Origin: an uncultured candidate division Zixibacteria bacterium
Lineage (GTDB): Bacteria > Zixibacteria > MSB-5A5 > UBA10806 > 4484-95
Length of the DNA stretch: 64,000 nucleotides
Reading direction: 5' to 3'
NCBI GenBank assembly: GCA_963668625.2
Contig: CAXXKA010000008.1
Coordinates: 800,001-864,000, forward strand
Shown: positions 2,840 through 59,538 of the stretch, piece by piece
Position numbering within the stretch: position 1 is the first letter of the stretch
Layout of the letters: each line of letters begins with the position of its first letter
Program-made: the position numbers and the translations under genes
Notes under the pieces: generated by a model
Seen by the model: the letters and a program-made list of their open reading frames with translations, nothing else
What the model was told of the DNA's origin: nothing
Database searches by the model: none

Positions 2840-4066
2840 ATGAATAGATTAACAAAACTTATATTAACATCAGCATTGATATTGATAATTGCCTCGTTGA
2901 GCTGGTCATACGATACCGAGCATGTCGTAGTGGTGCTCATCGATGGCGTGAGATATACCGAAAGCTTCGGTGATACCACCGGAACCTATTGCCCGCGCTT
3001 GACCGCTTTGCAATCGCAGGGAGTCGTGCACGATTCGGCTTTCAATGATGTGGCAACTTATACCTCAATGGCCGTACCCGCTACCTTCATGGGCAGATTC
3101 TATGCGCTTCAGGATACATCGTACCTGGGCGAGGATGTTCAATTCTGCAGATACCCGACATTCTGGGAATACGCTCGCGCCGATTTAGGCCTTTCGGATA
3201 TCGATGCTATTTACATCACCCCCGACTATGGCTCCGGCACCTGGTTACCATCGTTTTACCCCGGATATGGCCCTGACTACTGGCCGTCATTTCATCAATC
3301 GGCCAACAGCGATGCCGCCGTATTCGATTCGGCACTAGCAGTAATAACGCGAGACCATCCGGTGATTAGCTATGTATATTTTCCGGAAACCGATCATGCC
3401 GGTCACACCGCTGATTGGAATTACTATATCTCCGCAATCAGGGAGGCGGACTCCTTGACTGCCTGTTTATGGGATTCCATTCAAGCCGATCCTGTCATGG
3501 CCGGCAAAACGACAATGATAGTGACAAACGATCATGGCCGTCACGATGATGCGCACGGTGGTTTTCAGGGTCATGGATGTGATTGTTTCGGATGCAGGCA
3601 CGTAATGTTGTTTGCCATAGGTCCTGATTTCAAACGAGGTGATCATGTCGATAGCCCCCGGGCCTCGATTACTGATATAGCAACCACTATCGGTGAGCTT
3701 CTGGAGTTCAATACGACATTCTGCACCGGAAGAGTACTACTCGAGATTTTCGGCGATTCCTACGATTATCTGCCCGGCGATTGCAACATGTACGCCGGTT
3801 CATGGCCGCCAGTCACGATCGGCGCGGATGTTACCTATCTGGTGAACTATTTCAGGGGTATTTCAACGCCCTGTTTGCAGGATGGTTTCTATGCATCGGG
3901 GGATGCTAATGGGGATTGCACTATTATCGGCAGTGATGTTACCTACCTGGTGAACTATTTCAGGGGCATCAACCCGGTTAATTACTGCCCCGATTATCCT
4001 CCCACCTGGTTATCTCCCGAGGATTTACCCGGTGAGGCGCCAAATACCTGGCCGGGATGCGAGTAG
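2840..4066 (+). CDS. Secreted alkaline-phosphatase-superfamily hydrolase with C-terminal dockerin-like domain
   Basis: VVVLIDGVR, ETDHAGH and TNDHGRH metal motifs; duplicated GDxN...DVTYLVNYFRG. Confidence 0.85.
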   Translation: MNRLTKLILTSALILIIASLSWSYDTEHVVVVLIDGVRYTESFGDTTGTYCPRLTALQSQGVVHDSAFNDVATYTSMAVPATFMGRFYALQDTSYLGEDVQFCRYPTFWEYARADLGLSDIDAIYITPDYGSGTWLPSFYPGYGPDYWPSFHQSANSDAAVFDSALAVITRDHPVISYVYFPETDHAGHTADWNYYISAIREADSLTACLWDSIQADPVMAGKTTMIVTNDHGRHDDAHGGFQGHGCDCFGCRHVMLFAIGPDFKRGDHVDSPRASITDIATTIGELLEFNTTFCTGRVLLEIFGDSYDYLPGDCNMYAGSWPPVTIGADVTYLVNYFRGISTPCLQDGFYASGDANGDCTIIGSDVTYLVNYFRGINPVNYCPDYPPTWLSPEDLPGEAPNTWPGCE

Positions 4067-56985: not shown

Positions 56986-57012
56986 TTCATTAGCTAGTCG
57001 ATTAAAATTATT

Positions 57013-57044
57013 AAGCCGGGCTGATTGATTTTAGCCCGGCTTTT
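57013..57044 (+). terminator. Rho-independent terminator
   Basis: AAGCCGGGCT...AGCCCGGCTTTT. Confidence 0.7.
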
Positions 57045-57171
57045 CTATTTCAGGAAATGATATACCGACTTATAAGGTTCGTATTCGCTACATTTTAGAA
57101 ATACGAACCAAGTGCCGAAACATTCTTATCCAGGACAAGATTATCCTGATCGATTTGGAATAATCATCAAA

Positions 57172-57522
57172 TTATTTTTTCGACCACAGCCCCAGTTGAT
57201 TACCCTCCAGATCAGTGACTACGCCCATATAACCATATTCGGGTGATATCTGGGTTTTCTCTTTTACGATAGCACCACCTATACCTTTGACTTTTTCGAG
57301 TGTAGCCGAGACATCCTCAACCTCGATATAGAATAAGATTCCGGGTTTTTCGGATAATTCGTAACTCTGATCGAATCCACCACCTATACCATCAGGGGCG
57401 GTGAATAGCATATAGTTCCACTCCTTCATCAAATCGAATTTCCAATCAAATAACTCGCCATAAAACTTTTTCGCTTTTTCAAAATCTTTCGAGGGTATTT
57501 CCATATGACAGATACCATTCAT
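57172..57522 (-). CDS. VOC/glyoxalase family protein
   Basis: HMEIP...FYGELFDW...DLEGNQLGLW. Confidence 0.9.
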   Translation of the reverse strand: MNGICHMEIPSKDFEKAKKFYGELFDWKFDLMKEWNYMLFTAPDGIGGGFDQSYELSEKPGILFYIEVEDVSATLEKVKGIGGAIVKEKTQISPEYGYMGVVTDLEGNQLGLWSKK

Positions 57523-57559
57523 AATTACTCCTATGATAAAAGTCTACTCCAAATTTCAG

Positions 57560-58573
57560 TTATCTGTTTGCTAACACAAAGTTAGGGAAATCTTCAAACA
57601 CCCAATTATTTTTCAAGGTGTCATAGATTATTCCCAGTAATTTTCTGGCTGTGGCAATGATAGCCTTACCGCTGCCACGACGGTTTTTTATACGATTGTA
57701 ATATTTACTCAAGTAATGGTTATATCGTATGGCAACAAGCGTACACTGCACCAGTGTAGTCCGACCAATCTTAGAACCACGCTTGGTAATCCGACCATGA
57801 TGCTGAATCTCGTTTGAATTGGAAACTCGCGGCACTACGCCAAAATATGAGGCCAATTTATCTTTGTCCGAAAAATCAGCAACATCACCAATTACCGAAA
57901 GCAACACTGTAGCTGATTTGCTGCCGATTCCTTTGATGCTGGTCAGGTTCTTATGCCCGTTCAACTTGCGACCCTGATCCTCTATCTGTTTGTCCAGCTT
58001 TTTTATCCCCTCATTCAAACTGCGAATCTGATCAACCAATACCTCAAGCTCAACAGAAACAACCTCATCAAAATTCATCTTTAGAACCCGCTCCAAACTC
58101 TTGTTGCTGGAGTAGGCCTCCTTTTTACTCTTGATACCATGATGATTGAGTATGTTGTGTATTTTATTCTTCAAAGCTGTACGTAACTTGACCAGCTTGT
58201 CCCGTGTCCCAACAAGTGAACTGATCTGCGCTTTATCTTTCGTCTTTAATCGGGCTTTCGGCAACATGTCTTTGCTCATAAAATAGGCTAAGTTCCTGGC
58301 ATCGTTTTCATCCGTCTTACTGACTGATGATTTGATTATCTCAAATTTGTTCGGATCGACGACAACAACTCGCTTGACCAAATGCGATATCTCATCAACG
58401 AAATAACGAGTGTTGCCAGTGGCCTCAACCGCTACACAATCCGTCTTTTTTAATCCTCGTTTAAATTCCTTTAGATCCTTTAGCCGATACTCCTTGATCC
58501 TCTCCCGACCACCGGCTGTCAGGCAACACACGGTCAAACTGTTTGTGTGAAGGTCTACTCCTAAGTACCTCAT
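57560..58573 (-). CDS. IS110 DEDD recombinase/transposase
   Basis: YLGVDLH, VEATG, KTDENDA; SIKGIG, YFGVVPRVSNS, AIIATARKL; SD GGAG before ATG 58573. Confidence 0.95.
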   Translation of the reverse strand: MRYLGVDLHTNSLTVCCLTAGGRERIKEYRLKDLKEFKRGLKKTDCVAVEATGNTRYFVDEISHLVKRVVVVDPNKFEIIKSSVSKTDENDARNLAYFMSKDMLPKARLKTKDKAQISSLVGTRDKLVKLRTALKNKIHNILNHHGIKSKKEAYSSNKSLERVLKMNFDEVVSVELEVLVDQIRSLNEGIKKLDKQIEDQGRKLNGHKNLTSIKGIGSKSATVLLSVIGDVADFSDKDKLASYFGVVPRVSNSNEIQHHGRITKRGSKIGRTTLVQCTLVAIRYNHYLSKYYNRIKNRRGSGKAIIATARKLLGIIYDTLKNNWVFEDFPNFVLANR

Positions 58574-58594
58574 CTTCTTGCTCCATTCTATGGT

Positions 58595-58795
58595 TATCAC
58601 TGGAGCAGACTCTCTGTCGGCGCCTACCAAACTCCTATTCAAGGTCTTTGCCTTATGGTGGCAATTCGGTTACAGGTCTGATTAATCTCCTTTACGAGGT
58701 CTGGCCTCAAGCATTCAGTTCAGCCTATAACCTATCCGCTCCAGTTAGAAATTCATTACCGAAGCTCTAACACCAACAGAATAGATTAGCAAGAT
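58595..58795 (-). ncRNA. Putative bridge/seek RNA of the IS110 element
   Basis: Closing stem CTGGAGCGGA/TCTGCTCCAG enclosing two similar stem-loops containing AAAGGAG (target) and ATAGGAG (donor junction). Confidence 0.7.
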
Positions 58796-58959
58796 GCTTT
58801 TATCGTACCATCTCCTTTTCTGAAATTGTTGGTATTAAATTGCCGATCTTAAAATATAAAAATAACCGTATCAGGCAACATGTTTCTGACATCGATATCG
58901 TAAAGTATAATTTTCTTGAATACTTTTTCGGCTTATGGTAGTTATAATATATACAACGC

Positions 58960-59105
58960 GGATATCACATCACCGGCTATTAGTATTTACCCTCATATTT
59001 CTTTTGCTCGAACGGAATAATTACGAAAACCGGTCAGCGCTACGTAAACCGTATGAAGAGGGGACGCTTCACGACGAGGAGGTGAATACCTGATTGAGGC
59101 GATAA
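58960..59105 (+). ncRNA. Possible rod-shaped structured RNA or 5' leader
   Basis: Nested pairings GTATTTACC/GGTGAATAC, CTC/GAG, TTCTTT/AAGAGG, ACGG/CCGT, TTACG/CGTAA; TATAAT at 58943. Confidence 0.35.
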
Positions 59106-59133
59106 CTTATTAAACTTTTATCAAGGAGGTATC

Positions 59134-59538
59134 ATGAAAATCGTAGGGTACATGGAAGGCACAAATTCCGAGGTGTTAACCAATCTGTTTTTGGAGGGAA
59201 TAGAAACACTGCCGCTTTCCAATAGTTGGGATAATCACGGGAAATTTATCGCACATATAATGAAAAACGATGATATCAATCTGGTAGTGGGATATCTTCA
59301 CAAGTTCATCCCTCACGCCAAACAGTTCGATATCGGCGATCTGTTCTCATCGATCCGCGTTTATAGAATCCCGGTCGTCATTATTGTCCCGAAGAAACTT
59401 CAGGACAAAGCGAAAAAGAGAGTACCGAAGGGTATTAAATACACATTCGCCGATCCGGATGAGATAACAGATGTTATTCTTGGCGTATTAAAGCCTAAAA
59501 AGAAAAAAGCTAAAAAATCAGCGAAAAAGAGAAAGTAA
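59134..59538 (+). CDS. Hypothetical alpha/beta protein with Lys-rich tail
   Basis: Strong SD AAGGAGGT; tail KPKKKKAKKSAKKRK; terminator 59560-59585. Confidence 0.75.
   Translation: MKIVGYMEGTNSEVLTNLFLEGIETLPLSNSWDNHGKFIAHIMKNDDINLVVGYLHKFIPHAKQFDIGDLFSSIRVYRIPVVIIVPKKLQDKAKKRVPKGIKYTFADPDEITDVILGVLKPKKKKAKKSAKKRK

Follow-up and report, generated by a model that had tools for sequence, protein, structure and literature searches.

Probable Shine-Dalgarno targeting by an IS110-family insertion sequence with a bridge-RNA-like left end in an uncultured Zixibacteria bacterium

The insertion sequence at the VOC gene and its sister copies

The stretch of DNA analysed in the present study, hereafter the window, comprises 64,000 nucleotides of an uncultured candidate division Zixibacteria bacterium (GenBank assembly GCA_963668625.2, contig CAXXKA010000008.1, positions 800,001 to 864,000) and carries, on its minus strand at 57528-58811, a 1284-bp insertion sequence (IS) of the IS110 family. 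With the GGAG of its right end counted in, this is the exact unit common to 11 identical copies, and at this locus it separates a Shine-Dalgarno (SD) sequence from a 116-aa Glyoxalase/VOC open reading frame (ORF; 57522-57172, Pfam PF00903). Read along the minus strand, the host sequence ...CAGAAAAGGAG, with its SD at 58819-58812, is directly followed by the element, which starts with ATGGTACG at 58811 (left-end sequence ATGGTACGATAAAAGC...); the last letters of the element, ...TTTATCATAGGAG, end at 57528, and then come TAATT (57527-57523) and the ATG of the host gene (57522-57520). The host SD AAAAGGAG (58812-58819) represents the left target arm, now cut off from its own gene, and the host spacer TAATT together with the VOC ATG (57520-57527) represents the right one, while the right-end terminus ATAGGAG (57528-57534) acts at once as the donor arm and as a replacement SD placed 5 nt before the host ATG. 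The original prediction, made from the letters of this stretch, had read the junctions as AAAA-GGAG-[IS]-GGAG-TAATT-ATG, with which our minus-strand reading agrees, and both the SD regenerated by the element end (AGGAG) and the sense orientation with the host gene are seen directly; its coordinates, 57520-58830, bracket the element but exceed its true extent.

In the Logan contigs of the probable source runs, the repeat is collapsed at 57528-58817/8 with a depth of ~7-13x that of the flanks, and the contig breaks and the depth agree with the element boundaries and the copy number. Neither an empty allele nor a circle junction was found in the contig-level data of four runs. Additionally, two wetland metagenomes (runs X4 and X5) yielded contigs with 0-3 differences from the element (57528-58818), none of them with the flanks of the window, indicating the presence of the same or a near-identical element in other samples.

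The transposase, or bridge recombinase, is a protein of 337 aa (57560-58573, minus strand) that contains an N-terminal RuvC-like DEDD domain (PF01548, E 1.4e-13) and a C-terminal Tnp domain (PF02371, E 5.4e-22), as is expected of the IS110 family. Its residues D7, E50, D88, D91 and S212 are invariant across 23 homologs; the catalytic residues align to the ISCro4 motifs GxD, EAT, KTDxxDA and SIxGIG, the IS621 numbering being mapped by motif only, and comparison with the PDB matched the transposases of IS621 and ISCro4 remotely (E about 1e-12), mainly in the Tnp domain. The left end of the element, 238 nt long, holds the RNA described below, and the right end extends 32 nt past the stop codon. 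A subterminal inverted repeat of 11 bp, 91% complementary, lies 4 nt inside each end; the left arm (58797-58807) contains a -10-like TACGAT (58807-58802), and the right arm (57532-57542) forms, together with a -35-like TAGACT (57541-57546), a segment spanning 57532-57546, all on the minus strand.

The host assembly (4.30 Mb in 10 contigs, 45% G+C) holds 11 copies of the element at ~100% identity, every one of which is preceded by (A/T)AAGGAG, in the form AAAGGAG in nine cases and TAAGGAG in two. On the right side of all 11, past the element end ...CATAGGAG, the transposase strand shows a spacer of 5-7 nt and then an ATG. Recombination has taken place directly 3' of the GGAG in host ribosome-binding sites (RBSs), the transposase is always co-directional with the host gene, and the ATAGGAG of the right end leaves that gene an AGGAG at the original spacing. 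The ORFs opened by the downstream ATGs reach at least 116 codons in nine cases and have 39 and 34 codons in the other two. Some of these genes stand behind long intergenic regions and others only 5-65 nt behind a co-directional ORF, which indicates that operon-internal RBSs are also used.

Among the 41 genomes searched, the transposase was found in two, namely the own genome and that of a family member, in which the protein is 25% identical, and it was not found in two same-genus genomes (96% and 89% complete). Orthologs of the target loci in two sister species carry an uninterrupted AAGGAG-N5-10-ATG, at all four loci tested in G001 and at three of four in G002. At the VOC gene, the empty site reads ATAAAGGAGGAACTATG in G001 and TTAAGGAGAAAATCTATG in G002; at locus L004 it is AAAAAGGAG-N6/7-ATG in both, at L010 both sister genomes again show an uninterrupted SD-spacer-ATG, and L002 is uninterrupted in G001, with no match in G002. 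Since the sister genomes belong to species ~70% identical rather than to the same strain, the earlier reconstruction of the empty site as the RBS of the VOC gene is supported in kind, by the uninterrupted arrangement in two sister species, but not letter for letter.

Relatives across phyla and the left-end RNA

The protein has 4806 relatives at E <=1e-10 among 6943 candidates, the best 120 being 64-100% identical, and species-representative genomes, when scanned, yielded 346 pattern matches; 324 of these were confirmed and 80 kept (56-68% identity). Their records come from Planctomycetota, Acidobacteriota, Actinomycetota, Nitrospirota, Verrucomicrobiota, Bacteroidota and others. For the counts that follow, identical sequences were collapsed, and each count excludes the loci whose contig stopped inside the element or within 12-170 nt of it. 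AAGGAG closes 73 of 76 distinct left flanks, a figure to be read with the fact that our left-end finder demanded GAG before the element, which in part forces the last 3-4 flank bases to look conserved; the unbiased part consists of AA at -5 and -6 and the variable -7. An ATG is located 3-12 nt past the element in 66 of 78 distinct right flanks. Under a strict RBS test (a start codon 3-12 nt past the element opening an ORF of at least 50 codons, applied where 170 nt or more of right flank were available), 58 of 74 distinct sites passed (11 own, 63 in other genomes), against a background of 13.2% of 363,786 positions. A right end was found at 87 loci, and its final 9 nt read TCATAGGAG in 76 of them and ACATAGGAG in eight. 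The arrangement that emerges from the flanks of copies and homologs, AAGGAG followed by the element and N-ATG, is the one anticipated by the original prediction.

The 249 nt upstream of the transposase gave a fold z-score of -4.87, and five helices recur in 61 distinct left ends, that is, a closing stem and two stem-loops, each made of a basal stem and an apical hairpin. In the window, this bridge-RNA-like core occupies 58602-58742 (minus strand), with the closing stem P1 around the two stem-loops, each containing an internal loop and a hairpin. In the model, pairing extends to 94.7% of the cells, compensatory change is seen at 16 pairs and none of 500 shuffles was as good, with the slid controls paired at 28-45%. 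RNAalifold, run on the 61-sequence alignment, missed the long-range stem of the target loop, and the structure was therefore supplied by hand and tested by pair counts; alignment A2 was used without L039, which has lost the target loop, and L086, whose left end is unrelated. An Rfam search of 57000-59300 at E up to 1 returned only three chance snoRNA-like matches, with no curated family covering the RNA.

Both loops obey a common plan, an apical hairpin (GRGGC...GACCYCG) and then a 3' strand, which reads G-N-N-AAGGAG-N-N in the first (target) loop and G-N-AUAGGAG-N-N in the second (donor) loop. Each loop thereby presents, with its hairpin, a 7-nt strand in the sense of the DNA arm to the left of the crossover (the host SD for the target loop, the right end for the donor loop), and the two bases past that strand match the sequence joined to the arm after recombination. 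In the window's element, the 3' strand of the target loop is UAAAGGAG (58685-58694, minus strand), in the sense of the host SD arm, with the guide AAAGGAG at 58693-58687 and then AU, equal to the first two nucleotides of the left end; the 3' strand of the donor loop is AAUAGGAG (58630-58639, minus strand), in the sense of the right-end terminus, and then UU.

Evidence for a guide function comes from covariation. Base 2 of the guide equals target position -7 at 70 of 80 sites (permuted mean 42.1; 0/20,000 permutations), U, G and C guides occurring together with T, G and C targets and the single ACAGGAG guide with a CAGGAG target. The second base past the GGAG of the target loop equals left-end position +2 in 72 of 83 (permuted 47.9), and the bases after this GGAG mirror the start of the left end, AU with AT..., AC with AC... 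and, in a plasmid copy, CU with CT.... This last copy, 53% identical, resides on the plasmid of a cultured Tardibacter between CGAAGGAG and the ACAACCG-ATG of a parB-like gene, and it forms an independent guide-target instance, CGAAGGAG followed by CT... with the guide UGAAGGAG-CU. As for the donor loop, its AUAGGAG agrees with the final 7 nt of the right end in all 83 rows, and the base after its GGAG equals target +1 in 38 of 76 (permuted mean 24.5, p=0.0005). On its 5' side it carries ACCAU (58655-58659, minus strand), antisense to left-end positions 1-5 (ATGGT), and across the relatives ACCRU pairs with these positions in 248 of 285 cells (Watson-Crick plus GU), with far fewer in shifted registers (permutation p=0.028). 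The 5' strand of the target loop, AACUGAAUGCU (58710-58720, minus strand), appears weakly antisense to the core and spacer.

We consider it probable, on these grounds, that the window holds an active IS110-family (DEDD, bridge-recombinase) element with a bridge-RNA-like guide in its left end, whose target arm is the SD sequence N-AAGGAG. The guide-like AAAGGAG that had been noticed at the outset lies in a conserved internal loop of an RNA supported by covariation, and its variable base tracks the target; what had been overlooked is the second, weaker strand facing the spacer, as well as the precedent of IS900 and IS901.

Known systems, loop polarity and expression

Insertion between the SD and the start codon appeared in print for IS900 and IS901 in 1997-2003 (PMC2942039, in the portion available), and these IS110-family elements of Mycobacterium avium resemble ours in their target and in an orientation that is likewise fixed. 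The accessible part of PMC8141618 gives the IS900 target motif as CATGNNNNNNTCTCCTT, the reverse complement of AAGGAGA-N6-CATG, and has the transposase antisense to the host gene, with an opposite-strand hed ORF proposed to use host signals. By contrast with IS900, which is known here by description, the window's element has its RNA and transposase co-oriented with the host gene, the latter at all sites, and its right end re-supplies AGGAG. No opposite-strand ORF of the hed type runs across it, the opposite-strand ORFs in the ORF list having only 52 aa and 75 aa.

In keeping with the IS110 family, the element makes no target-site duplication, in that its targets differ from one another at -7 and -6 but its right end is ATAGGAG throughout, and a single SD stands at the sister-species empty sites; the AGGAG common to donor and target does not allow the exact core to be located. 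As in the IS110 group, a structured left-end RNA lies upstream of the transposase, one loop corresponding to the target and the other to the donor. With IS621 of this group the element shares the same two domains and catalytic motifs, a left-end non-coding RNA with two internal loops, and handshake-like bases after the guides, going by the available parts of PMC11208160 and PMC11208158, and a promoter would be re-formed across the circle junction. However, the protein similarity is remote, the subterminal inverted repeat has 11 bp in place of the 2-3 bp expected of IS621-like elements, the donor and target arms share 5 nt (AGGAG) and not a 2-nt core, and ~7-8 nt are specified here as against the 11-bp target with few sites (ATCAGGCCTAC) of IS621. 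The IS1111 group (seekRNA or right-end bridge RNA), to which the available text of PMC11208160 attributes subterminal inverted repeats of 7-17 bp and a right-end RNA that lies downstream of the transposase, is similar in its long subterminal inverted repeats and DEDD transposase, but the guide RNA of our element lies in the left end, which exceeds the right end in length.

ISPpu10, also of IS110 type, offers another comparison, since a 'dual-match' with a target stem-loop operates there and base pairing alone does not set the target, according to the part available of bioRxiv 10.64898/2026.03.19.712850. The gap between guide and target choice is common to both, as seen here in the RBS exclusivity, whereas the extra layer of ISPpu10, a GC-rich stem-loop in a REP-like target, is not evident at our AT-rich RBS sites. 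Our literature search, with ISfinder and supplementary tables outside its scope, returned no paper on this clade and none connecting the guide of a bridge or seek RNA with the SD.

The polarity of the loops differs from the IS621 loop rules, as given in the accessible portions of PMC11208160 and PMC11208158, in that the same-sense strands are here on the 3' sides of the loops, equal to an inverted polarity of the site; the rule would hold only with the DNA read antisense to the transposase. Read antisense to the host gene, the arrangement would have the IS621 design, with its left and right guides on the 5' and 3' sides, respectively, and CT as core. In this frame, the left arm would be the CAT-spacer, followed by the core CT and by CCTT(T) as right arm, and the right guide AAGGAG would be followed by the handshake bases. 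The target so read, CAT-spacer-CT and then CCTT(T), would be the published IS900 motif, with the transposase/RNA cassette inverted relative to the site, and we infer from this comparison a clade with an IS900-like target and an inverted cassette.

IS110 circles are reported to re-form a promoter (PMC11208160, available part), and an excised circle of the present element would join the -35-like box of the right end to the -10-like box of the left end. The -35-like hexamer (TAGACT in the window's element; TAGACA or TTGACA in relatives) would stand 17-18 nt from a -10-like hexamer (TACGAT in the window's element) across the circle junction, a geometry present in 47 of 51 distinct end pairs, the overlap of the -10 with the subterminal repeat being another possible cause of its conservation. 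Integrated copies would lose the -35 and would be transcribed from a host promoter or operon, with the host gene as the last cistron. A scan for sigma-70 patterns and terminators found nothing on the sense strand of the element and no terminator-like site. The sense position in a host 5' untranslated region (UTR) or operon, the lost -35 and the lack of a terminator-like site make host read-through plausible, which would take in the RNA, the transposase and the host gene in turn.

The left end opens with an ATG (GTG in some relatives) touching the host SD, and this frame stops after three codons (58811-58800: ATG GTA CGA TAA); a second ATG occurs 5 nt into the left end in many relatives. Such a mini-ORF could capture ribosomes from the orphaned host SD, or it could simply reflect a constraint on the donor site. 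The motif GGAGTAGAC recurs in three places, once in the right end (57550-57542), once where the transposase ORF starts (GGAGTAGACC) and, in relatives, as the 5' half of the closing stem of the RNA, with further coordinates at 58109-58119 and 58551-58561, and it may be a contact of the recombinase or the RNA, or else a -35 box.

Choice of ribosome-binding sites and competing explanations

Several results weigh against an account in which the SD guide directs the element to RBSs, the partly imposed flank bases mentioned above among them. The guide specifies ~7-8 nt, and only 171 of 490 WAAGGAGW sites in the own genome, or 178 of 479 in a second census, are RBS-like by a crude test (the motif and then a start codon with a long ORF); even among AT-rich motif sites, ~40-45% are not. 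Random choice among motif sites would place 11 of 11 copies at RBSs with a probability of about 1e-5 (0.35^11). With only ~35% of the motif sites RBS-like, the guide alone does not explain 11/11, and selection or another bias must add. The claim of 'programmed' insertion holds in so far as the guide matches the SD, but RBS exclusivity may in part be a product of selection, a 7-nt guide by itself predicting that ~35% of the insertion sites, and not 100%, are RBSs. Among the relatives, 16 of the 74 sites fail the strict RBS test, most of them still having a nearby ATG, with a short ORF or a longer spacer. Target position -8 does not follow the guide (17/75 vs 15.1 permuted), and the 5' strand of the target loop (10-12 nt) is weak, with 37.9% Watson-Crick pairing when core-anchored as against 26-32% at other shifts, and beats permutation only at spacer positions 2-6 (p 0.005-0.1). 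Since a single RNA serves all copies of a genome and related elements are non-independent, the permutation p-values overstate the significance. The polarity argument, in turn, rests on the published IS621 rules and a modelled structure, and upstream of the VOC gene, on the strand of that gene, the sigma-70 pattern scan detected nothing promoter-like.

The occupied sites of the own genome have features beyond the motif. Their AT content is 0.73/0.77, compared with 0.67/0.66 at unoccupied RBS-like sites and 0.56/0.59 at other motif sites; T stands at +1 in 9 of 11 (vs 19%) and the start ATGAAT in 4 of 11 (vs 2.6%). Wobble-tolerant pairing to the 5' strand of the target loop averages 3.82/6 against 2.61/6 at unoccupied RBS-like sites (p=0.0018), in a register picked after looking and confounded by T-richness. 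None of these features restores RBS exclusivity. AT-richness as the sole cause was rejected, 98 of the 218 sites as AT-rich as the poorest occupied one being not RBS-like, and so was spacer pairing as the sole cause, for which 30 non-RBS vs 12 RBS-like sites qualify at a threshold of 5/6. The simplest addition is purifying selection, acting on copies inside genes and relaxed at RBSs, where the SD is regenerated. Most likely, exclusivity for true RBSs would arise from selection against intragenic copies in combination with AT-rich, easily melted flanks and weak spacer pairing.

The alternative that survives best carries this selection to its end: insertion would take place at any N-AAGGAG(T) under a short guide only, and purifying selection would later leave the RBS copies, in which the SD is restored. 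The guide does cover only ~7 nt and one further base, spacer pairing is weak, non-RBS motif sites outnumber RBS-like ones (301 vs 178), and the target genes include many that do not look like housekeeping genes, such as the VOC protein and signal-peptide proteins. Yet none of the 11 identical copies lies inside a gene, despite the small probability given above, and their identity points to a recent burst with little time for selection; the differences between occupied and unoccupied RBS-like sites in AT content, +1 T and spacer complementarity argue, furthermore, for some preference at the level of insertion. Possible but doubtful as it therefore appears to us, this alternative differs from SD-guided insertion with added selection in degree, not in kind.

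We hold it to be unlikely that the target loop reads both signals, the SD with its 3' strand and the start codon with a CAU in its 5' strand, in which case exclusivity would be fully encoded in the RNA. Such a reading draws on the 26 of 47 distinct 5' strands that begin with CAU or UAU, on the strand length of 10-12 nt, which equals a core of 2, a spacer of 5-7 and an ATG of 3, on L048 and L037, which match over 8-9 contiguous nt with the ATG included, and on the CATG within the IS900 motif (PMC8141618, available part). However, the ATG falls in the predicted register at only 18 of 60 sites, about chance, with no excess over permutation at the ATG-facing positions, so that recognition of the ATG by CAU was set aside as unsupported; moreover, the window's element is without the CAU and still has 11 of 11 copies at RBSs. 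The register count and the missing CAU belong also with the points listed above against RBS choice being set by the guide.

Very improbable is a target-site duplication by staggered cleavage, with the left-end AAAGGAG as a mere RBS of the element ORF, which would suit the AGGAG at both junctions of every copy and the GGAG before the transposase ATG but is contradicted by the ATAGGAG right end, constant in all relatives whichever the target (TAAGGAG, GAAGGAG, CAAGGAG or CAGGAG) and hence the element's own and not copied from the target, and is opposed as well by the internal AAAGGAG, which is found in a conserved internal loop, ~110 nt before the transposase ATG, is echoed by the AUAGGAG of the second loop and varies in step with target -7, and by the protein, a DEDD/Tnp recombinase of a family whose published members share a core and make no duplications (PMC11208160, in the part available).

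What is new here, relative to IS900 and IS621, is a different and widespread branch with a co-oriented transposase, a regenerated SD and a loop polarity reversed with respect to IS621. Going further, we propose tentatively, and with slightly less than even confidence, that SD-guided insertion is the property of a whole cross-phylum clade, Pseudomonadota included, in which the guide is fixed on the SD, a short motif common to nearly all bacteria, the donor arm mimics the SD, whereby each insertion restores the host RBS, and the cassette, inverted with respect to IS900 and IS621, is driven by the host promoter. This would amount to a host-independent, self-expressing safe harbour that explains the spread of the clade, and to a natural 7-8-nt bridge RNA with an extra layer of selectivity (DNA melting, transcription, or partial reading of the spacer and ATG).

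SD-guided insertion would provide an RNA-level explanation for the 25-year-old observation that IS900 and IS901 insert between the RBS and the start codon, and the strategy is no mycobacterial curiosity, considering a large clade with 324 confirmed loci in one species-representative scan and thousands of protein homologs. For the engineering of bridge recombinases, it offers a natural case of a very short target guide, of donor and target arms that differ in one base, of guide strands on the loop sides opposite to those of IS621, and of a left-end RNA in an element with a long subterminal repeat. Since elements in 5' UTRs and operons leave the downstream gene an SD, inactivation should not be called by default in annotation. 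If host-promoter capture is true, chromosomal copies would express their RNA and recombinase more strongly than IS621, which is reported to be weakly expressed from genomic loci (PMC13626964, in the portion available).

A number of relatives deviate from the common form. In L092 (~3050-3090), the right end has its terminal 16 nt (ACAAACATCATAGGAG) in two tandem copies before the host ATG, which may be the footprint of a second insertion or of an excision at the regenerated SD. SD-like repeats also lie beside the insertion point in L082, where a (GAG)n run comes after the element, and in L038, with extra GGAG/GAGG motifs and the ATG 18 nt away. L078 (a Chitinophagaceae bin) and L096 (Pyrinomonadaceae) have ends reading CATAGAAG and target-loop strands AAAAGAG and CAUUGAGAG, not AAGGAG; judged by their letters, these could represent a natural reprogramming away from the SD, the flanks being too short to confirm the targets. 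Bacteroidota make little use of SD sequences. The left end of L039 (Phycisphaerae SM23_30) is without the whole target-binding loop while the donor loop and the ends are kept, and it looks like a decayed or non-autonomous copy. Two members of the family, L055 and L084, come from short contigs of bins with archaeal labels (Thermoplasmatales and Bathyarchaeota), for which mis-binning is more likely than archaeal hosts. Finally, L033, L035, L040, L043, L045 and other Planctomycetota loci contain an extra segment of ~100 nt, located ~20-120 nt inside the left end and before the RNA, which contains a long A/T-rich palindrome of the GATATTTTTTCTTTC...GAAAAAATATC type and is absent from the window's element.

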